NCBI GenBank assembly: GCA_005879605.1
Contig: VBKE01000001.1
Coordinates: forward strand, 53,067-117,066
From: Deltaproteobacteria bacterium
Lineage (GTDB): Bacteria; Desulfobacterota; Binatia; UBA9968
Direction of reading: 5' to 3'
DNA length: 64,000 nucleotides
In this document: positions 556 to 58,765 of the stretch, piece after piece
How the letters are laid out: the number at the start of each line of letters is the position of its first letter
Position numbering within the stretch: the first letter of the stretch is position 1
Position numbers and translations under genes: made by a program
The notes under the pieces: model-generated
What the model was told of the DNA's origin: nothing
Seen by the model: only the letters and a program-made list of their open reading frames with translations
Database searches by the model: none

Positions 556-557
556 TC

Positions 558-43298: not shown

Positions 43299-43310
43299 GG
43301 CTCCTCCTTA

Positions 43311-43778
43311 TTAAACTCTTTGCTGGCGCGCCGCGCGTTGGATCGCGCGCACGATGCGCAGATGGCTGCCGCAGCGGCAAAGGTTCGCCGTCAAGGCCTC
43401 TTTAATATCGGCCACCGTCGGGTTTGGATTGTTATCGAGCAGCACCTTGGCGCTCATGATTATGCCACTGATGCAGTAGCAGCATTGCCCGGCCTGTTCC
43501 TCGATAAACGCCTTTTGCAACGGATGGAGTTTTTTCGTCGTTCCCAGACCTTCGAGAGTTGTCACCGGCCGATTGGCCGCGGCCTTCACTTCCGTGACAC
43601 AGGAGCGGATCGCCTTCCCGTCCATGATGACCGTGCAGGAGCCGCACTGGGCCAGCCCGCAGCCGAATTTCGGACCGTTCAATTCAAGGTCGTTACGTAA
43701 GACGTAAAGCAGCGGGGTTTCAGGATTCACGTCGACGATCCGACTCTTGCCATTCACCTTGAGTGGGATTCGCGCCAT
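43311..43778 (-). CDS. (2Fe-2S)-binding small subunit (IorA-like), copy 1
   Basis: GPKFGCGLAQCGSC, RSC, QCCYC, NLCRCG; AAGGAGG RBS before ATG 43778. Confidence 0.93.
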   Translation of the reverse strand: MARIPLKVNGKSRIVDVNPETPLLYVLRNDLELNGPKFGCGLAQCGSCTVIMDGKAIRSCVTEVKAAANRPVTTLEGLGTTKKLHPLQKAFIEEQAGQCCYCISGIIMSAKVLLDNNPNPTVADIKEALTANLCRCGSHLRIVRAIQRAARQQRV

Positions 43779-43940
43779 CGTCGCCTCCTTCGGGTCAGTA
43801 GTGGGAGATGTCTTGTTGGAGCCAGACAATTAAAGACGTAAGCCTAAGTAGATTTAGATTGAGCCGCTTGCAAAAGTCAAGATCGTACCCCGATTCTGTC
43901 GCTGGCAGTGCCGGGAAACTTGTCGGGGCGACGTAATCGC

Positions 43941-43982
43941 ACAGGGCAACCACACAGGGCAACCACAGAGGGTTGCCCCTAC
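43941..43982 (-). repeat. GTAG-type REP palindrome with a 13-bp tandem duplication
   Basis: Minus strand GTAG-GGGCAACC-CTCTGT-GGTTGCCC; ACAGGGCAACCAC duplicated at 43941 and 43954. Confidence 0.65.
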
Positions 43983-46261
43983 TATGCGGGCCGGCTCACC
44001 TGCTGGAGTGCCGCCAGAACGCGTTTCGGTGTGAAAGGCACTTCGCGCAGTCGAATACCGGTCGCGTCGAAGATGGCGCTGGCAATGGCCGCCGTTATCG
44101 GAACGGTCGCCAGCTCGCCGGCGCCAAGCGGGGCCACGTCCTGACGATTGATCAAGACTATGTCGAGCTCCGGTATGTCGGAGAATTTCAAAATCGGGTA
44201 ATCTTTCCAATCGAGACTCGTCACTCCATTGCCGTCAAACGTCACTTCTTCAACTAGCGCGCGACTGACTCCCTGGACAATGTTTCCCTCAACCTGGTTT
44301 TTGACGCCGTCAGGGTTAACAATGAGACCGCAATCGTGCGCGCAAGTGATGCGTTTGACGGTCACGTTGCCGGTGGACTTGTTGACTTCCACATCTGCTA
44401 CGGCGGCAGCGTATCCATTGGAGCGTCGCGTCATGGCAACTCCTCTGCCGCTCGCGGTCGTTGCATTTGAATTCAACGCCGGCGCGGGACGCTTTTGCCA
44501 TCGGGTCTTTTCAGCCACGGTTTTCAGGACCTCCGTGCCGCGCTGATCGCTAGTCAAGTAACGCAGGCGGAATTCAACGGGATCGACACCGAGATCCGCC
44601 GCGATCTCATTCAAAAGCGATTCGCTGGCGAAAACGCGCGACAGCTGGCCGGGAGCGCGCAGGTTGCTTGTCCGAAGTGGAATGGGCTCGGGTTGCATCC
44701 ATGGAATCTCCTCCGCAAAGACCTTCGAATTTTCGAAGTTATAGATTTCCCCGCCGCCTTGGTTTCCGTTGCCCGAACCCGGGGTCTTTGACTTAATGCC
44801 GACCTGCTCCGACGCCAGAAGGGTTGTAATCGAAGAGACCGTCCAAGGAAGGCTGTAGTCGGTGAATTCCCAGGCGATGATTTTACCTGCGTCATCGACG
44901 CCGGCCTTCAATGTCTGTAACTGCGCCGGGCCTTTGGGTTCCCAGCCGTGCTCGTCCTGGCGCGACCATTGCACCCGCACGGGCGCCCTCACCGCTCTCG
45001 AAAGCAGGGCAGCATCCTCCGCGCTGTCATCGTTGCTCATCCGGCCATAGGAACCCGAGGCTTCGTGGTAGATAATCCGGACGTTTTTTTCCGGGATATT
45101 CAGTAGCGTCGCAATGGAGGCGCGGGTTCGAAAGGGGCCTTGGCATCCCGACCAAATGGTCGCCTGTTCGCCGCGCACATCGGCAACTGCGCATGATGGT
45201 CCAATCATGCCGTGCATCTGAAAGGGCCAGCGAAAGGTCGCCTCGTATTGTTTCTTTGCTTTGGCAAGTCCAGTGTTGGGGTCACCTTTGTCGGCAGCTT
45301 TTAGTGTGGTGAAGCTCTTCGTGTTTTTCAGGTAGGCATAGAGCTCATCGACATTGGCGGGAAGCTTGGTCGCCGGCTTGGACCAATTAACTTTTAGCGC
45401 TTGCGCCGCCTGGATCGCGGCCCACTGGGTTTTCGCGACGACACCGACGAAGCTTCCTTGACGAACGACTTTGACAAAGCCGGAAATATTTTTCACCGAC
45501 TCTTCGTCGATGCTAGCGGGAGCGGTATTGATCACCGGCGGCCGAACCACACGGCCATGCAGCATGCCCGGAACGCGCACGTCGTGGACGTACACTGCTT
45601 CACCCGTAACCTTGGGCGGCAAATCAAAACGCTGCACAGGGCTCCCGACCGTTTTGTATTGTTTGGGGTCCTTGGCCTTAACGTCCTGAGCTAACTTGAG
45701 TTCACCGGCTTTGCCTTCGGCTTGGATCGTCACGTTAAAGCGTTTGCCGCCGATCAACTGCGCGTAGGATACCTGTTTGGATGGAATGCCGGCGACGCTG
45801 ACCACGCCGTCTCGAACGGTGAGCTTCTCGACGGGAGCACCGAGCTTTTCCGATGCGAGGCGTAAGAGTTCTTTGCGCGCTGCTGCGGCCGCCTGGCGAA
45901 TCTGCGGGCCGGCGCGCTCGATGGTGCGGCTGCCGGACGTCGTTGCCTGGTCAATGGTCTTCGAAGTGTCACCCATGTCGACTTTGATCTTTCTCCAAGA
46001 AACATCCAACTCCTCGGCGGCAATCTGAGCGAGCGCGGTTTCGATACCGGTACCGAGCTCGACCTTGCTGGTGAAAACGGTCACGGTCCCGTCTGAGGCA
46101 ACGGCGATCCAGGAATCGAGTTGCGTGGGATCGGGCTCTCCGGCCGGAGCGGCTGTGGACTGTGCGAACAGATCGGACGCTGAGGGGAAAAGGTTAAAGC
46201 TGACGATCAAGGCGCCGGTGCCTTTGAGAAATTGTCTGCGGGAAAGTTCAGCTGTTGTCAT
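43982..46261 (-). CDS. Xanthine oxidase-family Mo-hydroxylase large subunit (IorB-like), Tat signal, copy 2
   Basis: SRRQFLK, SKVELGTG, PGMLHGRVVRPP, NLRAPG, HDCGLIVNPDG, GAGE. Confidence 0.92.
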   Translation of the reverse strand: MTTAELSRRQFLKGTGALIVSFNLFPSASDLFAQSTAAPAGEPDPTQLDSWIAVASDGTVTVFTSKVELGTGIETALAQIAAEELDVSWRKIKVDMGDTSKTIDQATTSGSRTIERAGPQIRQAAAAARKELLRLASEKLGAPVEKLTVRDGVVSVAGIPSKQVSYAQLIGGKRFNVTIQAEGKAGELKLAQDVKAKDPKQYKTVGSPVQRFDLPPKVTGEAVYVHDVRVPGMLHGRVVRPPVINTAPASIDEESVKNISGFVKVVRQGSFVGVVAKTQWAAIQAAQALKVNWSKPATKLPANVDELYAYLKNTKSFTTLKAADKGDPNTGLAKAKKQYEATFRWPFQMHGMIGPSCAVADVRGEQATIWSGCQGPFRTRASIATLLNIPEKNVRIIYHEASGSYGRMSNDDSAEDAALLSRAVRAPVRVQWSRQDEHGWEPKGPAQLQTLKAGVDDAGKIIAWEFTDYSLPWTVSSITTLLASEQVGIKSKTPGSGNGNQGGGEIYNFENSKVFAEEIPWMQPEPIPLRTSNLRAPGQLSRVFASESLLNEIAADLGVDPVEFRLRYLTSDQRGTEVLKTVAEKTRWQKRPAPALNSNATTASGRGVAMTRRSNGYAAAVADVEVNKSTGNVTVKRITCAHDCGLIVNPDGVKNQVEGNIVQGVSRALVEEVTFDGNGVTSLDWKDYPILKFSDIPELDIVLINRQDVAPLGAGELATVPITAAIASAIFDATGIRLREVPFTPKRVLAALQQVSRPA

Positions 46262-46277
46262 TTGGATCGCTCCTTCC

Positions 46278-46742
46278 TCAAACCGTCTGGCCCGACGCGC
46301 GCTTCACCGCACGCAAGATGCGCGTGTGGGTGCCGCAGCGGCAGAGATTGCCCGCCAGCGCCTCTTTGATCTGGCTGTCCGTCGGCTTGGGATTCTTATC
46401 CAATAGCGCCTTCGCCGTCATGATCATGCCGTTGATGCAGTAGCCGCACTGCAGCGCCTGTTCGTCGATGAAAGCTTTCTGGATAGGATGGAGTTTCTTC
46501 GTTGATCCAAGACCTTCGAGGGTGGTCACTGGATGGTTGCTTGCAGCTTTGACCGGCGTCACGCAGGAACGAATGGCGTTGCCGTCCATGATGACGGTGC
46601 AGGAGCCACACTGCGCCAAACCGCAGCCGAATTTCGGCCCATTGAGCTTCAAATCGTCCCGCAAAACGTAGAGCAGGGGAGTTTCGGGATCGGTATCGAC
46701 GACCTGAGTTTTGCCGTTTACTTTGAGAGAAACTTTCGCCAT
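46278..46742 (-). CDS. (2Fe-2S)-binding small subunit (IorA-like), copy 2
   Basis: GCGLAQCGSC, QCGYC, NLCRCG; GAGGAGG RBS. Confidence 0.93.
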   Translation of the reverse strand: MAKVSLKVNGKTQVVDTDPETPLLYVLRDDLKLNGPKFGCGLAQCGSCTVIMDGNAIRSCVTPVKAASNHPVTTLEGLGSTKKLHPIQKAFIDEQALQCGYCINGMIMTAKALLDKNPKPTDSQIKEALAGNLCRCGTHTRILRAVKRASGQTV

Positions 46743-46923
46743 TGCGGCCTCCTCTCCGATTTAGATGGGCAGAGCTAGATTAGCTGGGCTGTTCCATGTC
46801 TATGGATATAGACGATAAATTTTTAAGTCAAGGCACGCTAACGAGCGGTGACACAGTAAAAGCGCGGAGCTTTGATCCTCAAATAAGAACCCAGGAAGTG
46901 AGTCATGGTTGGAGCGGCAAGCG

Positions 46924-48684
46924 CTAGTTGACCGCCGAGCTTTCGTGATCGGGTGCGAGCGTGTCTTTTCGGTTGGAAAAGACGACGTCGTAAGCGTTTT
47001 GGGCTACCAGATACAATTTTCGGTCGGCTTGGGCGCGCAATTTGGCGTACGTAGCTCTGTCGGTTAGCGCGTAAATGGATTGCGGACTATTCCACTTTTG
47101 CCAGAACGCCTTATCATCATCAGCCCGCTTGTTTAATTCTTCCTCCCAGAGTTCGAAAGGCTCTACCCAACCGACCTGCGTCACGTGACGCTGCAGATAA
47201 AGAGGCAGATCTTGGTAATAGGCATGGTAACTCGCCACCTCATCGTTAGGCTGCAGCCAAGGCTTGATGGTGAGGGCGAGGTCCTTGACGGAGCGGCGCT
47301 GGTCAAAGATCGGCAAGCTGCTGTTGAGGACGACCAAGAAAAAAGCGGCGGTCAGTCCCAATGCGGAAAACGCTGCCGGAATATTTCGTTTGCCCAGAAA
47401 GCTCGTTGCCAGCGCGCCGGACAGCAAAATCGCGCTTTGCGCTATCATGTAGGGGCTTAACTTCATCAAATCGGGATAGAAATTCAAAGACGTAGACGGG
47501 ATCGTTGCTTCGTCCATGGGAACTTCGAGATCGGGCCAGTTCGAATACCGTTCCAGATAGTGCTGAGGCCCTCTTACGCCAAGCAGTAAGAGCACCAACA
47601 CAGCGCATAAAAGGCACAAGCAGCCGCCACGCAAGCCAGGGAGCTGAGGGTGGTTCCATGCCCCCGAGAAGTATCGACCGATCAATATGGCCAGCGGCGG
47701 GAACATGGGCAGTATGTAGGGAATAACTTTCGAACTGGAGAGAGAGAAAAACAGGAATACCCAGCCCGCCCAAAGCGCTAGAAAAATTGCTTCTTTGTGG
47801 CCGTGACGGGGGCGCCAGGAAGGGAAGAGGCTGTATCTTATGGCTTGATATAAGAACACCGTCCAGGGGAATAATCCTATGAACAAAACGGGTACAAAGG
47901 TCCACGGATGGTCGAGTGGGCCGTTCTTATAGAGAAACCGTTGAAAGTGCTCCCGAATGAAATAGAAATCGAGAAACTCCGGATTGATTTTGGCAACGAG
48001 AACGTGCCAAGGAGCAGCTATCGTGAGGAAGAGAACGAGACCAGAAGGGAGATACAGGTTTCTTAAAACGTTCCGTTCGCTAACAACCAGTATCCAAGTG
48101 CCGATGACGAGACTGGGAATAACGATTCCGATCAGACCCTTCTCCAGGACCGCCAAGGCTGCGAACACAAAAAAAGCCCACATGGCAGAGCGGCGCTTGA
48201 GTCCCGGCGGCTCGCGCGTGCCCAGTAAGAAAGAAATCAACGCGCAAGTTAGCAAGGTCGATAACCCCGTATCGAGATCGGCGACCCGGCTCATCGCGTA
48301 GTACAGCCCGGAAGTAGCCAGCACGACGGAAGCGAGCAGGGCGGTTCTGCGCCCGAATAGCTTCCTTCCGCCCGCATAAACCGCAAGACAACCGAGCAAG
48401 GCGAACATGGCGGGCCAAAGACGCAGCGACCATTCGTTCAAACCGAAGGCTTTTATCGATGCGCTCTGTAACCAATAAAATAGCGGCGGTTTCTCAAAGA
48501 ACTTGATGCCGTCGAGGCGCGGCGTGATGTAATCCCCGGTGACAACCATTTCCCTCGCGACTTCGGAATACCGGCCTTCATCCGGGGACCACAGCGCGCG
48601 CTCGCCGAGCTTGAAGCCAAAGAAAGACCCAAGCAAGAGAGTCAAAACCAACAGATCGCGGAACCAGTCACCACTCTTTAACAT
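46924..48684 (-). CDS. ArnT-like glycosyltransferase family 39 (lipid-carrier-dependent), copy 1
   Basis: PDEGRYSEVAREM..GDYITPRL, FFEKPPLFYW, WSLRL, KGLIG, EHFQRF, SKVIPYILP. Start 48684 (or 48729) overlaps the desaturase stop. Confidence 0.9.
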   Translation of the reverse strand: MLKSGDWFRDLLVLTLLLGSFFGFKLGERALWSPDEGRYSEVAREMVVTGDYITPRLDGIKFFEKPPLFYWLQSASIKAFGLNEWSLRLWPAMFALLGCLAVYAGGRKLFGRRTALLASVVLATSGLYYAMSRVADLDTGLSTLLTCALISFLLGTREPPGLKRRSAMWAFFVFAALAVLEKGLIGIVIPSLVIGTWILVVSERNVLRNLYLPSGLVLFLTIAAPWHVLVAKINPEFLDFYFIREHFQRFLYKNGPLDHPWTFVPVLFIGLFPWTVFLYQAIRYSLFPSWRPRHGHKEAIFLALWAGWVFLFFSLSSSKVIPYILPMFPPLAILIGRYFSGAWNHPQLPGLRGGCLCLLCAVLVLLLLGVRGPQHYLERYSNWPDLEVPMDEATIPSTSLNFYPDLMKLSPYMIAQSAILLSGALATSFLGKRNIPAAFSALGLTAAFFLVVLNSSLPIFDQRRSVKDLALTIKPWLQPNDEVASYHAYYQDLPLYLQRHVTQVGWVEPFELWEEELNKRADDDKAFWQKWNSPQSIYALTDRATYAKLRAQADRKLYLVAQNAYDVVFSNRKDTLAPDHESSAVN

Positions 48685-49705
48685 TGTCTGGTATCGATGT
48701 CGGTTCCGAAAGAGTTTTACGCCGAGCATTGCTACCGATAGCGGCGGGCAGTGCCGCGTCCGACAAAGCTATGGGACCGGAGAGCTGGTCTAGCGCAGCT
48801 GAAAAAAAGCCGCGATCGAACGTCTCCGACTGTTGGGCAAAGAAATCTGGAAGCTTTATCCAAGGAACCGCTGGATTGGCGTGGTGAACGCGATGCAAAT
48901 TGAAATGTAGAACGAGCCGAGAAAACATCCTGGGCAAGAAAAGATTATGACCGGAGACCGTGACCTGCACGGGAGTTCTGTAGTGATACACATTGTCCAG
49001 AAAAGAGATGAGAAAGGTTCGGACCATTAACAAGCTTATGAAAAGTCTCCAATGCGTCCCGAAACAAAACGCACTCAGAACGAAGATAAGACAAATCGCC
49101 ATGCCATCGGCCCGAACCTGTCGAACTATTTGGTCGTCCATAAATTTTTTCGCCAGCCATTTTTCCTGAATGTTGCCCTGGTCGAGAAGACGCTGTCGCA
49201 TCTTACGGAAAATATTTGACGGTAAGAAAAATATGAATGTGGAGGCGACCTCCAATAGGTAAAGGCCGCAAAATATGTAAAAGAAGTATCTGAAACTGGC
49301 TTTGGCTCTTGAAGCCTTTGCCGGATCGTATATCTCGGTCCCCCTTTCCATGGGTGACCGGTTGAACTTATGGTGGGACAGGTGGGTCAGCCGCAAAACA
49401 TGGAAAGGCGAGCCGAAAAAAATCGAGAGCAATCTTCCGAAAGCCAAATTAATTCTGCCAGAGGAATTGAACAAGTCGTGGATTGCTTCGTGAAGGAGCG
49501 CCCAGAAAGGGTTGTTCAAGCACGCAATGGGGATAAGAGACACGCCCCACCAAATACTTTTCGGCAACAGATAAAGCGGCAGAATAAAAAATTGAAAGAG
49601 GTTCAAGAAAATACACAGCCCCGCAAGGCTGTAATTAAAAACGTCGGGTATCAAGAGTTTTGCAGCTCGCGTTGGAGAAGAGAAGGAAACTGGCAAGTTG
49701 GACAT
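48668..49705 (-). CDS. Membrane fatty acid desaturase family protein
   Basis: Three His boxes HEAIH, HLSHH, HRVHH plus TM segments. ATG 49705 preferred because the track's extension runs through the promoter cassette. Confidence 0.85.
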   Translation of the reverse strand: MSNLPVSFSSPTRAAKLLIPDVFNYSLAGLCIFLNLFQFFILPLYLLPKSIWWGVSLIPIACLNNPFWALLHEAIHDLFNSSGRINLAFGRLLSIFFGSPFHVLRLTHLSHHKFNRSPMERGTEIYDPAKASRAKASFRYFFYIFCGLYLLEVASTFIFFLPSNIFRKMRQRLLDQGNIQEKWLAKKFMDDQIVRQVRADGMAICLIFVLSAFCFGTHWRLFISLLMVRTFLISFLDNVYHYRTPVQVTVSGHNLFLPRMFSRLVLHFNLHRVHHANPAVPWIKLPDFFAQQSETFDRGFFSAALDQLSGPIALSDAALPAAIGSNARRKTLSEPTSIPDNVKEW

Positions 49706-49801
49706 GTAGATCGCTCTCTCACAAACCGCTTCACGTTGTTCCATTGTCATCTTGATTGGGCTCTGTTTGTGGAAATATGCGCCATTCACGAGCGTCGCGA
49801 T

Positions 49802-49907
49802 GTTTACGCTAGCGCATGTATGCTTCGCGCTCAATTTTTGAAGCAGATTCAGAAGGGCCAATCACGATGAAATAAAGGGCTATTATCTTCTAGCCCTTAA
49901 GAGCTAT
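49802..49907 (-). promoter_or_regulatory. Duplicated promoter cassette, copy 1 (desaturase-ArnT operon)
   Basis: Minus strand: TAGCTCT-TA-AGGGCTA, TAGCCCT, TGGCCCT heptamers, then TTGAGC-17bp-TAGCGT; 93/106 identical to 55426-55531 by manual alignment. Confidence 0.8.
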
Positions 49908-50112
49908 TGGCTTCGAACACATCCCTCTCTTCCTCTAAGTCGCCGTGGTGCTCGGGTCCGCACGTTCACGAAAGTCGTCCTCATCGCGGGCACCTGCAGA
50001 TGAACGCGCTATTTTACATTCGCAGTCGAGATTTTTCCTGCAAATATTTTGCGCTAAGACCACGACGGCGAGAAAAGAAATGATATCATGGGTTAGGCCT
50101 AGATATTTCAAA

Positions 50113-50889
50113 ATGCTCCTGGACCCCTCTCGCAGTTCTGTCGCCATAGTGTTGATTTTTCGCGTTGCCTTGCTCGGTGCGCTTTCGTTAGCGACGCAAT
50201 CTGCGGTCTCTGCTTCTCCCGCCGGAGACGAACCTTCACCCGTAGAATCGAAAGAACACCAAAGTGCGGCGGTTCGACACTTCAGGCGCTCAATCGCGAG
50301 AATGCAGCCGTTGATAAAGCGCTATGGGTACTGGGCTGCAGCAGGGGCGACGTTGGTAGAGGGGATGGGAATCCCCGCGCCCGGCCAAACCCTTCTCATA
50401 GCGGGGGCTTTCGAGGCTGCCCGCGGGCGGATGAACATCGCGCTGCTCCTGCTCCTTGTGACTGGCGGCGCTCTAGTAGGCAACAGCCTCGGTTATGTGA
50501 TAGGCCGTTGGGCTGGCCGAGCCGCGCTGCACAAGCTCAAGGTCAACCCGCAGCGACAGCAGTACCTCGATGACCTTTTCAAGCGCCGTGGCGGCCCGAT
50601 CATCCTGTTGGCGCGCTTTGTCGATGGGTTACGGCAGTTGAACGGGATAATCTCGGGCGTGATGAAGATGCCGTGGTGGACCTTCACGGCGTACAACGTT
50701 GGCGGGGCGCTCCTATGGACTTTCGCCTGGGGGCTCGGAACTTACTATTTGGGTCGGGACATTCGCTTCATTGCAGCTTTTTTCCATCGGCACCGCGCGT
50801 TCTTTTTCGCACTGAGCGTGACCGCTTTGCTCGCTTTGTTGGTCTACTTTTTTTCGCCCAAGAATAGGGCGTTAAACGAAGATGCATAG
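50113..50889 (+). CDS. DedA family membrane protein
   Basis: RYGY...VEGMGIPAPGQTLLIAG, GNSLGYVIGR, ARFVDGLRQ, FTAYNVGGALLW; start uncertain. Confidence 0.88.
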   Translation: MLLDPSRSSVAIVLIFRVALLGALSLATQSAVSASPAGDEPSPVESKEHQSAAVRHFRRSIARMQPLIKRYGYWAAAGATLVEGMGIPAPGQTLLIAGAFEAARGRMNIALLLLLVTGGALVGNSLGYVIGRWAGRAALHKLKVNPQRQQYLDDLFKRRGGPIILLARFVDGLRQLNGIISGVMKMPWWTFTAYNVGGALLWTFAWGLGTYYLGRDIRFIAAFFHRHRAFFFALSVTALLALLVYFFSPKNRALNEDA

Positions 50890-51014
50890 GCGCCAGGTTC
50901 GAAAGTAACGACTCTCGGCAACACCTTATTGCTTTCAAAAGCGAACGACGATTTTTGGTAACAAGAAAACTGCTAGCGTGAAGCAGCGGTTCAGTTGACA
51001 CCGACGCTTTTCAC

Positions 51015-51119
51015 TCATGATTGCAGTATCGAATGTATCATACCCCAAGCGGCATAAAGGACTGTAAGCCCAACTACAAGCCAAACCACGACCTTAAACC
51101 AAAATGGCATATCTCCCAT
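51015..51119 (-). CDS. 34-aa single-pass membrane peptide (not in the ORF track)
   Basis: MGDMPFWFKVVVWLVVGLTVLYAAWGMIHSILQS*; purine-rich GAGATAGGGA upstream; co-oriented 98 bp downstream of the TVP38 gene. Confidence 0.6.
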   Translation of the reverse strand: MGDMPFWFKVVVWLVVGLTVLYAAWGMIHSILQS

Positions 51120-51217
51120 GCTTTAATCCCTATCTCGTCTCAACGTTTCAGAAGCGAAGGACGCAAAAGTGCCCGGTAATCTAGTCTCTTGGAACCTCTC
51201 ACTGGTAAACCAAATCA

Positions 51218-51934
51218 TCACTCATGCCGGATCGTTCTCAACCAGTGAACGAAACGGTCTTTACACAGGTAGCCGACAAATAGAAGGACCGCACAAAGAA
51301 CGGCAATTATCGCTGCGGTCGGGTAATCTTGTTTTCTAATGCTCACCCCTTGGATTGTAAGCAGGTATGTCCCGGGCATGCGACCCAACGTGGATACAAT
51401 CAAGAAGATGCTGAGCTTCATTCCCGTGAGGCCTAGGACATAACACAAAATGTCCTTTGGAAAACCGGGCAAGAGAAAAAGCAAGAAGCAGATTACTTCT
51501 CCTGTGTTCGTCGAGAGGAAGTTAAATTTGTCCAGAATGTCCTTCCTAATAAATCTCTCAACAAACGGTCTTCCCAAGATATCGGCAATCTCGAAAGCCG
51601 CCCACGAACCGAGCGTGAGTCCCAAGCTTGAGAAAAGAAACCCAAACGACACCCCATAAAGGTAGCCGCCCACTACGCCGGTCAACTCTCCCGGTATCGG
51701 CGAGATAATCACCTGTAACGCTTGCAACAAGATAAACATGGCAGAAGAATAGGGCCCCAGGGAAACAAGGAATCGGGCCAGCCTTCTTCTCCTCGTGAAT
51801 AACTTCCCAATTGTTTCAGCCGGTCCCATAACACTAAGTGGTTGTGGTCCGTAACGGCTCGAGAAGAAAATCAGTGCAATGAGCAGGACAAGAATCGTCC
51901 CTTTGATGAGAATCTTGCGTTGCTTGGTGGTCAT
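51218..51934 (-). CDS. TVP38/TMEM64 (DedA superfamily, SNARE-associated) protein
   Basis: FILLQALQVIISPIPGELTGVVGGYLYG, FLLPGFPKDILCY, GRMPGT; ATG 51934. Confidence 0.9.
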   Translation of the reverse strand: MTTKQRKILIKGTILVLLIALIFFSSRYGPQPLSVMGPAETIGKLFTRRRRLARFLVSLGPYSSAMFILLQALQVIISPIPGELTGVVGGYLYGVSFGFLFSSLGLTLGSWAAFEIADILGRPFVERFIRKDILDKFNFLSTNTGEVICFLLFLLPGFPKDILCYVLGLTGMKLSIFLIVSTLGRMPGTYLLTIQGVSIRKQDYPTAAIIAVLCAVLLFVGYLCKDRFVHWLRTIRHE

Positions 51935-52103
51935 GACTAGAGACCGAAAGAAAAATGCATCAACAGCGAGAGGAAATGACGAGCGCGCGGCATAGTCTTT
52001 CGAAGCAACTAACACCGATTACCGATGAGTTTGGGTGATTTTAAATTCGCCAAGTAATGCTTGGACCGCGGGTTGGTTATCTAGTTAAGCGCGGTGGAGC
52101 AAA

Positions 52104-52313
52104 TCACTCGATCGCCTTTCCGTCGGTTTTATGTTGAGACGCTTGAGGTGGTGCTTTGGGATCGGGTTCCTCGCCCTCGAGTTCCTTCTTGAATCCCCGT
52201 ATTGCCTCTCCGAGCCCCTTGCCAAGCTCCGGCAGTTTCTTCGGGCCAAAAACAACCAGCGCAACTAGAAAAATAACTATGAGGTGGAGAGGCTGAAAAA
52301 GACCTTCAAACAT
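52104..52313 (-). CDS. tatA: Twin-arginine translocase subunit TatA/E
   Basis: HLIVIFLVALVVFGPKKLPELGKGLGEAIRGFKK. Confidence 0.93.
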   Translation of the reverse strand: MFEGLFQPLHLIVIFLVALVVFGPKKLPELGKGLGEAIRGFKKELEGEEPDPKAPPQASQHKTDGKAIE

Positions 52314-52334
52314 AACGATTCTTCCGCGAGTTTG

Positions 52335-54116
52335 TCAGCGCAGTCGTATAGATGAGTTGTCTGTTTCGGCGCGGCAGCGATTTGACACCAGAACAAAATC
52401 ATCAAAGCTCGTGAGCCTCCTAGGAACTGCACCGACTTCCTTGGTCAGCCGGGGCAGGTTTTTTTCTTTCAGGAAGATCCGCAGCGGCAGTTCATTTTTG
52501 CCGCACTGAGCAGCGAACTCCTCAAAGGTAAAAAGGACCTGGCCGTAACCGGCGGCCGGAGCTGGACGCTTCTCCGCTACATAAAAACTGCCCATTATGT
52601 TTCCCTTCTCCGGTGACTGTACGAGCCAGATCGGTTTGTCAATCCGCAGATAGAACAGCAGCCCCTCGATATAAGTGTCGTAAAATACCAGACGGTCCGG
52701 ACGATCTATCAAAGCAGCCGTTGCCTGCGCGGTTGACTTTGCCGCACGACGGAACGAAGCTCTTGCCACAATCTGCCCGGCCAAAATGAAAAAGAGAGCA
52801 AGGCTGACGGCAGTACACATGAAAGCCGCGCCCTGGCCTTTCCAAACACTCTTTAGATCACCGGCTACAAAAACTCCAAAAACGAGGGAGATAATAGTCC
52901 CGTACAACAGAAGCAGCGAAACGCTCTGAGGCACGTCGGATCTAATATCTCTCGCCAAGAGATTCGGCCACGCCGCCCCCACAAGAAGATAGACAATGAA
53001 GGCGACTATAAAAATTCCAGGAATGTAGAGTATCCTCGATCGCTTCGGGTCTTGCATTTTAGCGGCCACGGCTTGCCCCGTTAGGATCGCCAGGGCCGGA
53101 TAAATGGGCAAGATATAATGCGGTAGCTTAGCATTCGATGCTGAAAAAAAAGCAAAAGGTAGGATCACCCACAGGGTCAAAAGAAGATTCGCACCGGTGA
53201 ACGTTCGATTCCACAGGTTTTTCGCCGTGACGGGTATGAAAAAACTCCAGGGTAAAAACCCGATTCCTAAAACCAAGAAAAAGTAATACCAGGTCTTGGT
53301 GCGGCTGAAATGCGGTGTCAGGTAGCGAACAAAATGCTCTTCCCACAAAAAGTACCGTAGGTAGCCCGGATTTCTCGACTCTACCCATAAATACCAAGGC
53401 GCAACGACAGCAAAGTAGACAATGGTCCCTAGGAGGATATTGAGTCGCCTCAGCAAAAACCATTTACCTGTAAGCAACAGATAAAAGAAAATGACCGCAC
53501 CCGGGATAACCAATGCGATCGGTCCCTTCACAAGCGTCCCGGCTCCCATCGCCGCATACATAAGGAGACAATGTCTTTTCCCGGCTCTCGGATCGTCGGT
53601 CTGTGTGACCGCATAAAATGAAAAAAGCGCCAAAGAGATGAACAAGGTCAAGGTCATGTCAAAGATCACAATCCGTGAGAATAAGAAGAACTCAAGGCTT
53701 GTGATCAAGACCAAAGAGCTCCACAAGCCCTCCTGCAATCCCCATTGAAGTCGAGCAAATCGGTAAACCAGAAAAATGCAACCAAGGCCTGCCAATGCGG
53801 ATGGCAATCGAGCCGACCATTCCGACAGACCGAATAGCTTGAAAGAAATCGCCACTAACCAATAGAAAAAAATGGGCTTATCTAGAGTTGGCAGGAAATT
53901 TTGATAGGGTGTCACCCAGTCGCCTAACAATAGAATCTCCCGCGCTTTCTCCGCGTTTCTACCTTCATCCGGCTCGAACAAAGCTGAGCTGCCCAGGCTG
54001 CTAAAGACGATAACCAGGCATACTAAACAAACCAGCCAAAACCAGCTTCGTTCCCCGATGCCGCTCACGCGGTTCTGACTGGCTATTGATTGCGAGATAT
54101 TGCTCTGATCGATCAT
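52335..54116 (-). CDS. ArnT-like glycosyltransferase family 39, copy 2
   Basis: EPDEGRNAEKAREI..GDWVTP, DKPIFFYW, EWSARLPSAL, TLVKGPI, EEHFVRY, AKLPHYILP; ATG 54116. Confidence 0.9.
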   Translation of the reverse strand: MIDQSNISQSIASQNRVSGIGERSWFWLVCLVCLVIVFSSLGSSALFEPDEGRNAEKAREILLLGDWVTPYQNFLPTLDKPIFFYWLVAISFKLFGLSEWSARLPSALAGLGCIFLVYRFARLQWGLQEGLWSSLVLITSLEFFLFSRIVIFDMTLTLFISLALFSFYAVTQTDDPRAGKRHCLLMYAAMGAGTLVKGPIALVIPGAVIFFYLLLTGKWFLLRRLNILLGTIVYFAVVAPWYLWVESRNPGYLRYFLWEEHFVRYLTPHFSRTKTWYYFFLVLGIGFLPWSFFIPVTAKNLWNRTFTGANLLLTLWVILPFAFFSASNAKLPHYILPIYPALAILTGQAVAAKMQDPKRSRILYIPGIFIVAFIVYLLVGAAWPNLLARDIRSDVPQSVSLLLLYGTIISLVFGVFVAGDLKSVWKGQGAAFMCTAVSLALFFILAGQIVARASFRRAAKSTAQATAALIDRPDRLVFYDTYIEGLLFYLRIDKPIWLVQSPEKGNIMGSFYVAEKRPAPAAGYGQVLFTFEEFAAQCGKNELPLRIFLKEKNLPRLTKEVGAVPRRLTSFDDFVLVSNRCRAETDNSSIRLR

Positions 54117-54154
54117 GGGGAAATTTTGAGTCGCTTTAATTCCCCGAACGACTT

Positions 54155-55264
54155 TTATTCTTCGGTTGTAAAGTAGAAAAATCCGATCATCGCGAAAATG
54201 GTATTGGGAATCCACGCGGCGATAGAGGCGGGCAGTGCTCCGCTATGGCCCAGGGAAATGCACAAGGCTGTCAGCACCCAATAACCGAAGCCGACAACCA
54301 TGGCAGCGCCAAAACTCAATGCGAGCCCCGCGCTCATTTGCTTCTTCAGCGCGAAAGGCGTCGCCAAGAGCACCATCAAAGGCGAGATAAATGGCAGCGC
54401 CAATTTTGTCTGGAGATCGACCTCGTCTGATGTCGTATCCATGCCCTTAGCCTTCATTTCAGAGATCTGTCTCTGTAGGTCGAAGAAGGTGAATTCTTCA
54501 GGGTCACGCGCCAGTAGCTTCAGATCATCTGGAGTGTTTGAAATGGTCGGCAAGTCAGTATCCTTTCGCCTAACCATTTTACCGTCTGCCAAGATATTCC
54601 ATCCCGTCGCTTCTTTGGCCTCCCATTCATGACCATTCCACCGAGCGCTCGGAACCTCTACGAGACCTCGCAGGCTGAAATCTCGATTGAGCAAAAAAAC
54701 GGTGACGTGCTCAAGGACATTTGTTCGGGTATCGAAATTGCCGATGTTTATAAAGCTACCCTGCGCGCGTAGCCATATTTCGCGAGTTCCAAAAAGACTT
54801 TGCTGTTGCTTTTTTTGGATTTCTACTTTGTAAATGGCTTGGGCGCGATGAGCGAAGATCGGCACGAGAGCTTCGTTCCAGAAAAACGTAAACAAACAAA
54901 TAAACATAGAAAGTATCAAGAGAGGTAAAGCGATTCTCTGGACGCTGATCCCGCTTGAGCGCATGGCGGTAATTTCGTTCGTTCGCGCTGCCATACCCAA
55001 ACAGAACAGAGTCGAAAACAGCGTGGCGAATCCGATCACGCGAGAAATCGAGAGCGGAGCGTTGTAAATAAAATAGCGAATCACGGTCCAAACCGGGATT
55101 GCATTGTCGAGAAAATTAGTGATCCGATCGAAAAAATCGACGACGATATACAATGATGTTGTAACCAGGAGACTGGAAAAAAAGATCCGGAGAAATGCCC
55201 GAACTAAATAGCCGTCAATAATACTGCCCAAGGGGAGGTTTTTGATCCCTCCGCGCGTGTCCAT
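54155..55264 (-). CDS. lptG: LPS export ABC transporter permease LptG (LptF/LptG family)
   Basis: IDGYLVRAFL, NEITAMRSSGIS, KLALPF, SLGHSGALP..AAWIPN motifs. Confidence 0.85.
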   Translation of the reverse strand: MDTRGGIKNLPLGSIIDGYLVRAFLRIFFSSLLVTTSLYIVVDFFDRITNFLDNAIPVWTVIRYFIYNAPLSISRVIGFATLFSTLFCLGMAARTNEITAMRSSGISVQRIALPLLILSMFICLFTFFWNEALVPIFAHRAQAIYKVEIQKKQQQSLFGTREIWLRAQGSFINIGNFDTRTNVLEHVTVFLLNRDFSLRGLVEVPSARWNGHEWEAKEATGWNILADGKMVRRKDTDLPTISNTPDDLKLLARDPEEFTFFDLQRQISEMKAKGMDTTSDEVDLQTKLALPFISPLMVLLATPFALKKQMSAGLALSFGAAMVVGFGYWVLTALCISLGHSGALPASIAAWIPNTIFAMIGFFYFTTEE

Positions 55265-55425
55265 CGGCAACTCTCAGCTCTTGTTTCGAAGTCTAGCTAT
55301 ACATCGACCGGCCCAAGCCAGTCCGGTATCCAGCTTAGTTTGGAACATAGCGACGATCCCTGAGCGCCTTCGAAAAAAGGTGAGTCCCTATCACACAGGT
55401 AGAACCCCGCCTTGCAATCATCGGG

Positions 55426-55531
55426 GTTTACGGTAGCGCATTGATACTTCACGCTCAATTTTTGAAGCAGATTCAGAAGGGCTAATTACGAGGAAATAAA
55501 GGGCTAGAGTATTCTAGCCCTTTAGAGCTAT
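55426..55531 (-). promoter_or_regulatory. Duplicated promoter cassette, copy 2 (lptG-ArnT-tatA-TVP38 operon)
   Basis: Minus strand: TAGCTCT-AA-AGGGCTA, TAGCCCT, TAGCCCT, then TTGAGC-17bp-TACCGT. Confidence 0.8.
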
Positions 55532-55556
55532 CGCAACGGAGATGGTTCAGGCGGTC

Positions 55557-56225
55557 CTATTCGAGAGAGCTTTTCACGGTAACCAGGCCTTGCTGGATTG
55601 CCAGAGCGGCAGCCTGCACTCGGTTTTGGAGATGGAGTTTTGCGAGAATATTTTTGAGGTGATTCTTTACGGTGTTTTCCGCGATATCCAATCGGGTCCC
55701 GATTTCTTTGTTAGTGAGTCCCGCGGCCAACAGTTGGAGTACCTCTTTCTCCCGTTCCGTGAGGTCGGCCGCAGCGGTCGTTTGGGAATTTTTAGACGCC
55801 CTTGCGGCGAACTCTTTCAAAATTCTCGCGGCGGTCCCTTGAGAGAGGGGCGCTTCACCGCGAAACACGCCTTCCAGCAGTTCGCGCAGCTTCTCCGGCT
55901 CCACTTTTTTGGAAAGATAGCCGTGGGCTCCGCACTTGATCGCTTCAAACAGGTCCCTATCTTCCTCGGAGATCGTTAAGATGACCACGCGGGTTGCCGG
56001 CAATGTGCTGGTAATCTGACGAGTTGCCTCTAAGCCGTTGACGACGGGCATATGAATGTCCATCAACACGAGATCCGGCTTCCCGGCCTGGGCCCTTGCG
56101 ATCGCCTCTGCTCCGTTTTCAGCTTCGCCCATGATCTCGAAGCATTTTTCCTTTTCGAGGAGACTGGCCAAGCCCTTTCTGAAGAGAGTGTGGTCGTCAG
56201 CCAGCAGCACGCGAATGGTTTTCAT
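55557..56225 (-). CDS. NarL/LuxR-family DNA-binding response regulator
   Basis: VLLADDH, PDLVLMDIHMP, GAHGYLSK, LTEREKEVLQLLAAGLTNKEIG..TVKNHLKNILAKL. Confidence 0.95.
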   Translation of the reverse strand: MKTIRVLLADDHTLFRKGLASLLEKEKCFEIMGEAENGAEAIARAQAGKPDLVLMDIHMPVVNGLEATRQITSTLPATRVVILTISEEDRDLFEAIKCGAHGYLSKKVEPEKLRELLEGVFRGEAPLSQGTAARILKEFAARASKNSQTTAAADLTEREKEVLQLLAAGLTNKEIGTRLDIAENTVKNHLKNILAKLHLQNRVQAAALAIQQGLVTVKSSLE

Positions 56226-57729
56226 CGAATCCTTGCTGTGCCAGCGGGAGCCGGATGATCATTAGGCTTCCCCGTCCCGGGACGCTGTTAATGCCAAGTA
56301 TGCCGCCCACAGACTTGGCGCGATCTTTCATGGTCTCAAGGCCAAAGCGGAGACTTGTCTCCAAGGTTCTATCCGTGAAGAAACCCCTTCCGTCATCTTC
56401 GATGGTTATAGTGGCGGCGTCGTTGTCATTTTCTATCGTGATCTTCCCCTTCGTCGCCCGCGCGTGTTTAACGATGTTGGTCAAGGCCTCATGGATGATG
56501 CGGATCAACTGGATTTCTACTTGAGAAGAAAAATTGATCGTTTCGGGATGATCAACTTTGAGTTCCACGGGAATTTTTCTCACGTCGCTAAAATCCCTGA
56601 GATAATCGGCAAGGGCGGCGACGAGTCCGACGTGATTCTTCAGAGCGAGAGCGCGCAGGCCGAATATGGATTCGCGAAGGTTTTGATAGGCTTCGTCAAC
56701 GATCTGAAACAATTCCCTCAATAGGTTGTTGGTTTCAGTGGACGCGTTCCCGCCGAAGCTTCTTTCTGCCTCAATGAGTTTGATACGAAGGAAGGCTAAG
56801 TCCTGGGCGAGGCTGTCGTGAAGCTCACAGGCCAATCGTTCTCGCTCGTCTAAAATGGCCAGCCCCTTTTGTTTGTCTTGGTGTTCTTTTAACTGTCCGG
56901 CCATGCGATTGAAGGCGTGGCTCAAGAGACCGATCTCGTCCCTCGATGTAATGGGCATATTTTCGGGGACTTCTCCCTTTGCGATTTCGCTGGACCTTTC
57001 AGCGAGCTGACGGAGAGGGAGAGCAATCGCATGATGAAAGTAGCGTCTTGACGCCAGCAGAAAGACGGTGCCGATAAGAACCAATGCGACATTGAAACCT
57101 ATCGTCATTCTCATTTTTTGTCGGGTTTCCGAAACTAGCTGATCCTCGATTCTCTCGTGTTCCACGCTTATCCGATCAGTGAATCCTTGGATCCGCTGCT
57201 GTATCGCCTCCATCGCTTCCAGGGCGCGGGTATCCACGTCGCTACGCGATCGCTCGGGGCCATTCTGCGATTGGCCGACGATTCGCTCCGCGACCCGTTC
57301 GGCATCGGTAATCATTTGACGCATCTCTTGGATGTTTCGGTCGGATCCGCCGACGTTTTTGTAGAGCGTTAGCAGCGTTTCGAAATCTGTCATGGAAGTA
57401 CGTATCAGAGAACCGGGAATCGTTTTGTTTTGCAGTTGGGCCAGCTGGACCTGAGAAGTGAAATACTGTAATCGCCTATCTATTCGTTCTACGGTATGAA
57501 CCTGCTCGCTCTGTCTGGCTATAACGTCTGACTTGAGAAGGTGGGAGCTTAAAAGATACAGAGAGCTTCCTCCAACCAAAAGGACTAATATGAAAAGGGA
57601 AACAAAAACAAAGCTCAATCGGCGATCGATTCGCCCGGTGAACTCCGTTCGGGAGGAGTCATTTTGTGCTACACTTTGACTGTTTGCGCGATATGTGTTT
57701 GGGAATAAAAAGCCGGCCAAAGACGACAT
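56197..57729 (-). CDS. NarX-type (HisKA_3) sensor histidine kinase with HAMP domain
   Basis: Two TM helices around a helical periplasmic domain, RDEIGLLSHAFNRM HAMP, ERERLACELHDSLAQ H-box, EALTNIVKHA, IEDDGRGF, FGLETMKDRA. Confidence 0.93.
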   Translation of the reverse strand: MSSLAGFLFPNTYRANSQSVAQNDSSRTEFTGRIDRRLSFVFVSLFILVLLVGGSSLYLLSSHLLKSDVIARQSEQVHTVERIDRRLQYFTSQVQLAQLQNKTIPGSLIRTSMTDFETLLTLYKNVGGSDRNIQEMRQMITDAERVAERIVGQSQNGPERSRSDVDTRALEAMEAIQQRIQGFTDRISVEHERIEDQLVSETRQKMRMTIGFNVALVLIGTVFLLASRRYFHHAIALPLRQLAERSSEIAKGEVPENMPITSRDEIGLLSHAFNRMAGQLKEHQDKQKGLAILDERERLACELHDSLAQDLAFLRIKLIEAERSFGGNASTETNNLLRELFQIVDEAYQNLRESIFGLRALALKNHVGLVAALADYLRDFSDVRKIPVELKVDHPETINFSSQVEIQLIRIIHEALTNIVKHARATKGKITIENDNDAATITIEDDGRGFFTDRTLETSLRFGLETMKDRAKSVGGILGINSVPGRGSLMIIRLPLAQQGFDENHSRAAG

Positions 57730-57839
57730 CAGATTTCAACTATAGCATACGTAATCGGGCAATCTAGAGCATAGGTGATGGGTAAGAAGAGCCCAGGTTC
57801 CATCGTCTGGGACGAATTTCGAGTTTCATATCGAAGCTT

Positions 57840-58619
57840 TCATCGTGTGACGAGATTCCCCATGACTCTCCCGGCGAGGAGCGTCTGCATCCGGCGGGGA
57901 GTAAGCTTCAGAGCGTAGACCAACAATCGGTTATGCCAGCCCGGAATCGCAACCGGCTTCTTGCCAAGTTTTTTTAGTCCCAGTTCAACGACCGGTTGCA
58001 CCGACATGGCAGCGACAGCGGATGAACCCGCGATTTCATGGAATTCTGTGTCCGTGGAGCCGGGACAGAGCGCTAGGACGTCCACTCCATCCTTTTTTAG
58101 CTCGTAGCCCAGAGACTCGGCCAAAAAGAGTTCATAGACTTTGCTTGCGGCATAGCTAGCTTCAAAAGGAGTTGCAATGTACGCGCTTACCGAAGAGACG
58201 AAAATGATTCCCCCTCTTTTCCGCTGCGCCATTTGCCGCCCGAATACATGACTCAAAATCACGGGCGCGCGGCAGTTGACGTCCAGTAGGGCCAGCTCTT
58301 TTTCTAAATCATGCTCTAAAAATCTGCTCGCGACGCCGAAGCCGGCGTTGTTGATCAGCAGCCCCACATCGATGGATTCAGTTGCCGAAAGAATCAGCGG
58401 GAGGAAGTCAGGCTGGGACAAGTCGGCCGTGACGATGCGGAGTTGTATTTTGTGCCTGTTTTCTAACTCGCGCGCTAAATCTTCCATTCTCTGTCGACGT
58501 CGAGCGACCAGCACCAGATTTAAACCCATTTCCGACAACTGCCGGGCAAACTCTGTGCCGATACCCGCGGAAGCACCGGTTACGAGCGCCCACGGCCCAT
58601 AGCGGTCTCTAAATGTCAT
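57840..58619 (-). CDS. SDR family oxidoreductase
   Basis: YGPWALVTGASAGIG, LINNAG, YAASK, LCPGSTDTEF. Confidence 0.92.
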   Translation of the reverse strand: MTFRDRYGPWALVTGASAGIGTEFARQLSEMGLNLVLVARRRQRMEDLARELENRHKIQLRIVTADLSQPDFLPLILSATESIDVGLLINNAGFGVASRFLEHDLEKELALLDVNCRAPVILSHVFGRQMAQRKRGGIIFVSSVSAYIATPFEASYAASKVYELFLAESLGYELKKDGVDVLALCPGSTDTEFHEIAGSSAVAAMSVQPVVELGLKKLGKKPVAIPGWHNRLLVYALKLTPRRMQTLLAGRVMGNLVTR

Positions 58620-58765
58620 CGCCGGGAACTCCTTTCTTCGAGCAGTGTATCTCGGCGAAAATCGCGCGCATAGTCAATGGCAAAGATTTGCTGGCAAGTC
58701 CGCCTGGAAGATCAGAGACGGAACACTACGCCGAGAACGCCGAAAAATTATAGCGAGCGAATGAT

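Follow-up and report, generated by a model that had tools for sequence, protein, structure and literature searches.

Does a run of eleven genes for envelope lipids, regulators and small membrane proteins in an uncultured soil bacterium amount to one system, or have several histories met at one place? The question is raised by a locus at 46.9 to 58.6 kb of a 64,000-nucleotide stretch of DNA (the window; G000:C502:53067-117066), taken from a 6.59-Mb metagenome-assembled genome (MAG) of 581 contigs with 94% completeness and 7.36% contamination, whose nearest named relatives are Candidatus Binatia MAGs. An earlier note on this DNA had proposed that a NarL-type two-component circuit co-regulates lipid unsaturation, glycolipid modification, carrier recycling and lipopolysaccharide export here as a single undescribed system. 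We find that the cluster of envelope-lipid modification genes is real, and that it is a mosaic and not one old, widespread system. It has two layers: a three-gene core, made up of a short-chain dehydrogenase/reductase (SDR), a membrane di-iron oxygenase and an ArnT-type transferase, which recurs beside two-component systems in other bacteria, and a 5.5-kb block with lptG and a second ArnT-type transferase, which is confined to one near-species lineage. Whether the region acts as a two-layer envelope-glycolipid modification locus, with the working proposed below, we consider evenly poised. In window coordinates, the features are as follows.

57840-58619, minus strand: SDR gene (Pfam adh_short, 4.9e-37), outside the coordinates of the earlier note
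56197-57729, minus strand: sensor histidine kinase gene with HAMP, HisKA_3 and HATPase_c domains, two membrane segments and a periplasmic stretch of ~145 residues
55557-56225, minus strand: response regulator gene of NarL/LuxR type (Response_reg and GerE), its start overlapping the end of the kinase gene
55426-55531, minus strand: copy a of D1, a 106-nt direct repeat, beginning 26 nt past the regulator stop codon
54155-55270, minus strand: lptG (TIGR04408, 270.6 bits against a cut-off of 240), first gene of the inserted block
52335-54215, minus strand: GT39A, gene for an ArnT-type GT-C transferase (PMT_2 2.3e-24, also PMT); likely start ATG 54116
52104-52313, minus strand: tatA (TIGR01411, 69.5 bits against a cut-off of 53.9)
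51218-52015, minus strand: TVP38/TMEM64-type gene of the DedA superfamily (VTT domain, 1.7e-20); likely start ATG 51934
51015-51119, minus strand: hydrophobic open reading frame (ORF) of 34 codons, preceded by AGGGA, a plausible ribosome-binding site; gene status uncertain
50969-50987, minus strand: weak terminator-like hairpin from a pattern scan, 28 nt past the small ORF (-8.8 kcal/mol, z -1.15, not distinctive)
49945-50889, plus strand: dedA (VTT domain, 6.6e-18), divergent from the oxygenase gene; likely start ATG 50080
49802-49907, minus strand: copy b of D1, with a decayed hairpin and its end ~55 nt upstream of where the oxygenase starts
48668-49861, minus strand: gene for a membrane di-iron oxygenase of the fatty-acid-desaturase family (PF00487, 1.3e-21); likely start 49744-49750
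46924-48729, minus strand: GT39B, gene for an ArnT-type GT-C transferase (PMT, PMT_2, Arnt_C), its start overlapping or abutting the end of the oxygenase gene

All the genes that had been listed for this region were found at their places by ORFs, Pfam and NCBIfam. Transcribed along the minus strand from 58.6 to 46.9 kb, they run SDR, kinase, regulator, lptG, GT39A, tatA, TVP38-type gene, 34-codon ORF, (dedA, on the plus strand), oxygenase and GT39B. By Pfam, two MFS genes flank the locus upstream and two Fer2_2/molybdopterin-hydroxylase pairs flank it downstream.

The older layer emerged from the neighbourhoods of the oxygenase gene. A single oxygenase sequence used as query against genome contigs gave no match; an alignment of 21 oxygenase homologues, searched against a species-representative genome collection, retrieved 11 loci, whose contents were read by tblastn and Pfam. 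A GT39B orthologue (56-78% identity) lay directly downstream of the oxygenase gene in seven of these 11 (L055, L056, L058, L059, L060, L064 and L061, the last with only the first ~76 residues). The remaining four were L057, where a heptosyltransferase-like fragment is followed by the contig end, L062, where the contig ends inside the gene, L063, with the oxygenase in pieces, and L065, at 39% identity and in a different context. The SDR gene stood directly upstream of the oxygenase gene, often abutting or overlapping it, in L055, L056, L057, L058, L059 and L064, while in L061 it sits upstream of the kinase and regulator genes. Among the 11 loci, those with titled records belong to MAGs that bear the labels Candidatus Binatia, 'delta proteobacterium', Verrucomicrobiia and Chloroflexota; four relatives' loci carry the same triad and, as they are possibly the same records as four of the 11, were counted once. 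More distant oxygenase paralogues (43-56% identity) lie in unrelated contexts. SDR, oxygenase and GT39B are the conserved layer of the locus. A keyword search of open full texts found no description of such a triad, which may be described elsewhere. After the triad in one of these loci (L056:12940-13737) there is a gene of the FA_hydroxylase family, a hint that some lineages may oxidise a lipid in additional steps.

A two-component system lay just upstream in five of the 11 loci. It was of the OmpR type, with a HisKA kinase, in L055, L057, L060 and L064, and of the NarL type, with a HisKA_3 kinase, in L061, where the pair is orthologous to that of the window (kinase 60%, regulator 75% identical) and directly precedes the oxygenase gene. 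In the window the NarL-type pair is placed between SDR and oxygenase. The proposed link of a two-component system to the desaturase-family gene and GT39B is therefore a recurrent one, and the recurrence of non-orthologous two-component systems beside the three-gene core, which we regard as our best evidence, argues that this core is a regulated unit. The window regulator itself has NarL as its best NCBIfam model (189 bits, below the cut-off of 250) and shows zero nonsynonymous changes relative to a 97% variant of the locus (L090). For the SDR the best NCBIfam model is mycolate reductase (142 bits, below the cut-off of 380), and the nearest models are lipid-type ketoreductases.

The distribution of the full arrangement was determined by searching metagenome contigs with GT39A and screening the 80 loci obtained by tblastn with the window proteins. 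The window order was present in 10 of the 80 (L086-L092, L110, L126 and L127), all with GT39A at 93% identity or more, and lptG stood beside the transferase in none of the other 70. Five contigs at 99-100% protein identity (L086-L089 and L091) carry the window order including tatA and the TVP38-type gene; L086 covers SDR to oxygenase, L087-L089 and L091 cover overlapping parts, and together they contain every gene from SDR to GT39B. Since these five independent contigs share the arrangement, it is not a mis-assembly, and an assembly chimera within the window is ruled out. Among relatives of the same family and order, none of 20 lptG loci holds another gene of the cluster (within ~±10 kb where the contig allowed) and none of 20 GT39A-family loci contains lptG; no claim made here depends on either of the unpublished genomes G005 and G011. 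A variant at 93-98% identity (L090, L092 and L110) has neither tatA nor the TVP38-type gene: window positions 52358-51158 are replaced by ~70 unrelated bases, and the small ORF directly follows GT39A. Furthermore, nucleotide identity between window and variant is mosaic, at ~99% from SDR through lptG (lptG, regulator and kinase) and ~94% in GT39A and dedA, which suggests recombination within the locus. The 5.5-kb block between regulator and oxygenase is thus a lineage-specific, recent insertion, and the proposal that all eleven genes form one conserved, undescribed system does not hold at these counts. Gene neighbourhood across relatives, the check that had been suggested for it, bore out the triad and its two-component neighbour but did not find the lptG block joined.

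The borders of the block indicate how it may have entered. The two copies of D1 are 88% identical, with 13 mismatches, and bracket 5518 nt that hold lptG, GT39A, tatA, the TVP38-type gene, the small ORF and dedA; fuzzy searches of the 6.6-Mb genome found no further copy of D1 or of its core, leaving two in total. Copy a contains a terminator-like hairpin of 12 bp at ~55499-55524 followed by a T-run (-22 kcal/mol, z -5.15), which in copy b is reduced to 8 bp (-12.1 kcal/mol, z -2.16), and the 30-nt core after the hairpin is identical in both. The flanks of L061 follow the window order without the block (MFS, MFS, (EamA), SDR, kinase, regulator, oxygenase, GT39B remnant, Fer2_2, MoCoBD). Regulator and oxygenase are spaced only ~250 nt apart there, and the same hairpin lies in this spacer, with changes on both arms. 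In this locus (L061:10022-11214) the oxygenase reads in two frames and ~76 residues of GT39B remain before the Fer2_2 gene, a state that either decay of the module or assembly errors would explain. We infer that D1 is the old regulator-oxygenase spacer, consisting of the terminator and the oxygenase upstream region, and that it was duplicated on entry of the block: exactly the D1-bracketed pattern would result if a circular intermediate with the spacer on it had been integrated by a single crossover. One D1 copy lies upstream of the lptG operon and one upstream of the desaturase operon, and through such a duplication both transcription units would now begin behind the same sequence.

Co-regulation of both units by the NarL-type pair is plausible on this arrangement. 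A somewhat doubtful alternative is that the cluster is physically real but is not one circuit: SDR, oxygenase and GT39B, perhaps with the two-component system, would form the unit, and the block would be a by-product of recombination that landed in the spacer, possibly by single-crossover integration of a circular intermediate with a spacer copy, and that is either self-expressed or drifting to loss. The confinement of the block to one near-species lineage, its existing polymorphism for tatA and the TVP38-type gene and the mosaic identity to the variant are all consistent with this, as are the strong terminator between regulator and lptG and the presence of other copies of each of the four named block genes at ordinary places in the genome. 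However, lptG, GT39A and tatA are tightly spaced on one strand (gaps of ~38 and ~21 nt), the window LptG keeps all 46 of the columns that are invariant in 20 relatives' LptG, and the other lptG of the genome is a broken copy. Measured against the 97% variant, every gene compared has a ratio of nonsynonymous to synonymous changes (dN/dS) below 1, ranging on few changes from 0.09 (SDR) to 0.56 (kinase and dedA), and the values for GT39A and lptG, 0.19-0.30 on small counts, point away from drift. Likewise, the 30-nt core is identical in both D1 copies despite the 13 mismatches across the repeat.

What the two transferases do was approached through their closest characterized relative. In searches of the PDB by sequence (E <=0.001) both matched only ArnT of Cupriavidus metallidurans (5EZM; GT39B 3e-57, GT39A 8.5e-55) and no Pmt chain, and the ArnT model NF009784 gave E-values of 7.8e-65 for GT39B and 4.6e-58 for GT39A, compared with 5e-20 and 1e-14 for Pfam PMT. 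The Arnt_C domain was matched by GT39B at 35.6 bits (cut-off 26.5), with no match listed for GT39A. According to the passages of PMC8306577 on the C. metallidurans enzyme, E84, K85, R270 and Y345 serve the carrier phosphate and the pairs D55/R58 and D158/K203 the lipid A phosphate. Read from the 5EZM alignments with a uniform +3 chain offset, eight of these eight residues are kept in GT39B and seven of eight in GT39A, where E84 is replaced by D. As the earlier note had supposed, then, these matches and the residues named in those passages speak for ArnT-type proteins and not for protein O-mannosyltransferases; by sequence, GT39A and GT39B are members of the ArnT family and not orthologues of the 4-amino-4-deoxy-L-arabinose (Ara4N) enzyme.

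The genome contains at least eight ArnT-like GT-C genes, among them a 70% paralogue of GT39A on contig C560. C560 and C478 share 189 exact bases at their starts, in opposite orientation, and metagenome contigs L097 and L104 confirm that the two join. The resulting locus of ~17 kb carries a divergent tatA, then DegT, an ArnC-like GT2, a Gfo/Idh/MocA oxidoreductase (best model UDP-GlcNAc 3-dehydrogenase, below cut-off), the GT39A paralogue (GT39A'), a second ArnT-like gene, an AsnB-type amidotransferase, a third ArnT-like gene, DedA, UppP/BacA and a convergent TVP38 gene. It is in this setting, whole or in part, that genes of the GT39A family usually stand: in relatives' GT39A-family loci DegT, GT2 and oxidoreductase occur together in five of 20 and TVP38 lies within ~3 kb in seven of 20, and among the 70 canonical metagenome loci a tatA relative is divergently upstream in 19 and a TVP38 relative downstream in 23. 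The trio of GT39A, tatA and TVP38-type gene in the window echoes this widespread neighbourhood. Thus, the earlier remark that no arnBCAD genes lie in the window, leaving the donor sugar open, stands for the window, but a donor-sugar locus exists elsewhere in the genome, at C560/C478.

It is possible, although we rather doubt it, that the ArnT-type enzymes glycosylate an acceptor other than lipid A, which could be a different phospholipid or glycolipid produced by SDR and oxygenase, or else a polysaccharide or proteins of the periplasm. Both scores fall far below the ArnT equivalog cut-off, the genome holds many such genes, and a lipid substrate of its own is suggested for GT39B by its constant pairing with a lipid-type SDR and a di-iron oxygenase; moreover, ArnT relatives transfer several different sugars, and for some of these relatives no product is known, as described in parts of PMC8306577. 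Against this, both proteins retain the ion pairs D55/R58 and D158/K203, which according to the same source orient the lipid A phosphate, GT39A is linked in an operon to lptG, and in L057 a heptosyltransferase-like fragment follows the oxygenase gene.

The lptG gene of the block is a full-length match (TIGR04408 model positions 1-348 of 351). It had been described as a lone lptG, and there is indeed no lptF or lptB nearby in the window, but the genome has an lptF-lptG pair on contig C126, in a housekeeping region with ribosomal-protein, EF-Tu, Lon and ClpXP genes; likewise, 13 of 20 loci of relatives have a weaker LptF-type match directly upstream of their lptG. The C126 lptG (~86.9-88.0 kb; L045:8906-10078) is broken by a ~41-nt loss that shifts the frame and takes away part of a late transmembrane helix, the residues that stand opposite LMVLLATPFALKKQ when it is aligned to the window copy; it is otherwise well conserved, with 38 of 39 covered invariant columns kept. 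A maximum-likelihood tree built from 22 LptG sequences places the window copy with G003 and G012 (support 100/98) and the C126 copy with one G013 copy (96/92), and since they fall into different groups the two are not a recent duplicate within the genome.

These two clades also bear on whether all the contigs come from one organism. If the bin were mixed, with C502 and C126/C560/C478 from different related organisms, there would have been neither a replacement of lptG nor a donor locus in the same cell. We consider this unlikely. The fragmentation and contamination of the MAG, the position of the two lptG copies (G003 and G012 as against the G013 copy), a C126 ClpX that is 99% identical to that of G013 and two tatC genes in the bin would fit it. 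However, just 11 of 97 C502 ORFs have a copy at >=60% identity elsewhere in the bin, which is far from a second genome, and relatives carry three to four Lon paralogues with pairs at 77-81%, so that such paralogy is normal in the family. In addition, one and the same metagenome record series can contain both window-type and C560-type contigs (L091 and L096, for instance), and even in a mixed bin the window lptG would still be without an adjacent lptF in five independent assemblies.

There is also a bolder reading, which we think quite unlikely: the LptG isoform would be exchangeable and matched to glycosylated lipid A, such that the NarL-type system induces an ArnT-type transferase together with a foreign-clade LptG for LptB2FG extraction, the latter having already replaced the frameshifted lptF-linked copy in this lineage, while alongside it the triad would constitute an undescribed route by which Binatia and some other soil phyla oxidise an envelope lipid and then attach a sugar to it. 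A rationale for LptG beside an ArnT-type enzyme comes from Burkholderia cenocepacia, in which, by the account in parts of PMC5377068, deletion of arnT is viable only with an lptG D31H suppressor and LptG can discriminate ArnT-modified from unmodified lipopolysaccharide. That case concerns a point mutation in a single lptG, whereas the window has a second, phylogenetically foreign lptG in the transferase operon and the lptF-linked copy is broken. With lptG in an operon with a lipid A-type transferase and a broken lptF-linked copy, the tuning of LptG to lipid A modification becomes testable in a new lineage.

The oxygenase is a member of PF00487 (78 bits, cut-off 29.7), and since homologues have 330-340 amino acids its start is placed near 49744-49750. 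Its histidine boxes HX3H, HX2HH and HX2HH (H87/H91, H123/H126/H127 and H286/H289/H290) are invariant in 21 sequences. In an AlphaFold model (predicted confidence, pLDDT, 66.6) the nearest structure was FtAlkB (8SBB; Z 11.1, root-mean-square deviation 4.5 over 251 residues), with unrelated rows from Z 5.3. The model thus fixes a predicted AlkB-like fold, and the chemistry is not fixed thereby. Sequence comparison with the PDB gave no match at E <=1, and Foldseek against the PDB none at E <=0.001; NCBIfam gave no desaturase model, the sole match being a weak one to CrtW (25.7 bits), and a protein atlas returned generic 'fatty acid desaturase' clusters only. The oxygenase therefore shares with the AlkB/membrane fatty-acid desaturase superfamily its histidine boxes and its fold match to FtAlkB and, unlike characterized members, has neither a PDB sequence match nor a specific NCBIfam model. 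Lipid unsaturation, the role first suggested for it, is not shown by these data, which instead describe an enzyme of a distinct subfamily paired with an SDR and an ArnT-type transferase.

The kinase has hydrophobic segments at residues ~38-60 and 208-228 and a HAMP domain at 231-282. In Bacillus subtilis DesK/DesR controls des, and the sensor DesK spans the membrane several times and is not known to have either a periplasmic domain or HAMP. The window resembles this system in having a HisKA_3 kinase and a NarL-type regulator beside a PF00487 gene, but its sensor architecture differs, the oxygenase is tied to an SDR and an ArnT-type gene, and the related loci mostly have OmpR-type systems, so that the analogy drawn earlier with DesK/DesR is a weak one. 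A DesK/DesR-like membrane-fluidity circuit, driving a phospholipid acyl desaturase through sensing of temperature or membrane order with the glycosyltransferases as bystanders, would account for a HisKA_3/NarL pair near a PF00487 gene (directly adjacent in L061), but is very improbable given the ~145-residue periplasmic stretch between two membrane segments plus HAMP, the OmpR-type system in four of the five related loci with an adjacent two-component system, the packing of the oxygenase between SDR and ArnT-type gene in six of 11 loci, with frames often overlapping or near-abutting, and the absence of any NCBIfam desaturase match beyond CrtW.

The tatA gene of the block is one of six TatA-family genes in the genome, two of them on C502, with two tatC genes elsewhere. 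The TVP38-type protein has no NCBIfam match and has paralogues at 68% (C139) and 59% (C478) identity. The dedA product scores 65 bits against the DedA model (cut-off 236) and 47 bits against UptA (cut-off 250), and compared with L090 its DedA domain is well conserved and its N-terminal 75 residues are variable. DedA/UptA-type proteins are undecaprenyl-phosphate flippases that support lipid A modification, as stated in portions of PMC12893004, PMC11474028 and PMC7835334. The window is like such systems in that two VTT-domain proteins stand beside ArnT-type transferases, and the canonical locus likewise has DedA, UppP and TVP38 after its transferases; unlike them, both window proteins fall below the UptA and DedA equivalog cut-offs, and a transport role here is putative. 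The 34-codon ORF has no Pfam family at E up to 10 and was found only in the same lineage, in eight loci at 100% (permissive tblastn); it bears a weak likeness to the last, C-terminal helix of a permease on C317. Its coding signal is unreadable, because the variant is nucleotide-identical over ~230 nt, and we lean against its being a real gene, while giving that an appreciable chance.

If the two layers act together, the kinase would sense a periplasmic signal and the regulator would act on the sequence past the terminator or hairpin in both D1 copies, switching on oxygenase and GT39B and, together with them, lptG, GT39A, tatA and the TVP38-type gene. The two ArnT-type enzymes would then move a sugar, perhaps an amino sugar, from an undecaprenyl-phosphate donor to a phosphorylated lipid on the periplasmic side of the inner membrane, and the acceptor would most likely be lipid A. 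The donor would be made at the C560/C478 locus by DegT, the ArnC-like GT2 and the oxidoreductase, the TVP38 and DedA proteins would return the freed carrier, and the extra LptG, with LptF and LptB, would extract the modified lipopolysaccharide. For the SDR/oxygenase pair our guess is oxidation of the acyl or prenyl chain of the same lipid.

Several observations weigh against this joint working. The promoter pattern scan found zero sites in either D1 copy (5 sites overall, against 8.7 expected from shuffles), the first third of D1 is a terminator and not a promoter, and D1 may be no more than a trace that the insertion left behind. The sole direct NarL-oxygenase neighbour outside the lineage, L061, looks degraded or error-ridden. 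As a close variant is without both, tatA and the TVP38-type gene are dispensable for the function of the locus. The NF009784 scores of 219.5 bits (GT39B) and 197.1 bits (GT39A) lie far below the cut-off of 567, and ArnT-type enzymes can use other acceptors. In a MAG of 581 contigs with 7.4% contamination, the second locus and the broken lptG may belong to different cells. Finally, three soil metatranscriptome contig sets yielded a piece of 322 nt that matches the oxygenase (5 mismatches) and one of 242 nt at the 3' end of GT39A (12 mismatches and a gap), matches that are too short to define transcription units and that could stem from DNA carry-over.

In enterobacteria PmrAB/PhoPQ controls the arnBCADTEF pathway of lipid A modification with aminoarabinose. 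An outline of the arn pathway is given in a section of PMC8306577. Common to that system and the one proposed here are a two-component system beside an ArnT-type GT-C transferase, an aminotransferase and an ArnC-like GT2 for an undecaprenyl-phosphate donor, and transfer at the periplasmic face. In contrast, the window regulator is NarL-type and not OmpR-type; the donor genes are at a separate locus, with a Gfo/Idh/MocA oxidoreductase in place of ArnA/ArnD; both transferases miss the ArnT equivalog cut-off; and SDR, di-iron oxygenase, LptG, TatA and DedA-type genes are part of the window cluster. Closer in layout are RaxH-RaxR of Xanthomonas and ColS-ColR of Pseudomonas, which, in the passages of PMC8306577 devoted to them, adjoin the lipid A remodelling genes arnT-lpxE-eptA. 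There too, an ArnT homologue of unknown sugar specificity stands beside a two-component system with donor genes elsewhere, and the ArnT-like call follows the same residue logic; unlike the window pair, those systems are OmpR-type and come with a phosphatase and a phosphoethanolamine transferase and, as those passages present them, without oxygenase, SDR, LptG or DedA-type genes. By analogy, the locus would resemble a PmrAB/arn- or ColRS/arnT-type lipid A remodelling unit that departs from these in the class of its regulator, in its partner enzymes, in having transferase and donor genes at separate places, and in the presence of LptG. Two-component control of ArnT-type lipid A glycosylation is thus a known theme; the recurrence of the triad beside non-orthologous two-component systems in several phyla goes beyond it. 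The locus is also a clear example of operon building, in which spare, dispersed envelope genes were dropped into a regulated spacer and the spacer was duplicated.

Base composition does not set the locus apart. The A/T-richness that had been noticed by eye is real and modest, with a per-kb GC content of 0.47-0.55 over 47-58 kb compared with 0.56-0.60 over 41-47 kb and 0.548 for the genome, and GC at third codon positions of 0.50-0.58 for lptG, GT39A, tatA, the TVP38-type gene, desaturase and kinase compared with 0.64-0.72 for flanking genes. However, paralogues of the locus genes elsewhere in the genome are similar (0.48-0.67), so the richness belongs to these membrane-protein genes as such and does not single out the locus, and low GC as a sign of foreign origin is ruled out by the equally low values of paralogues at ordinary loci. 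The sole match in an Rfam scan of 46000-59000 was at chance level, to a long non-coding RNA model.

Some features of the wider window are recorded here as observations in their own right. Downstream of the cluster, at 41010-46742, a [2Fe-2S] subunit paired with a molybdopterin hydroxylase subunit occurs twice in tandem, and L061 has the same duplicated pair at the same place; the one subunit scanned, the molybdopterin hydroxylase subunit at 43982-46261, gave a TAT-signal match. Three Lon protease genes are present in the bin (window 309-2966, C401 and C126), of which those in the window and on C401 are 77% identical. At 38923-39635 of the window, a ribbon-helix-helix gene adjoins a PIN-domain gene in an arrangement that resembles a toxin-antitoxin pair.

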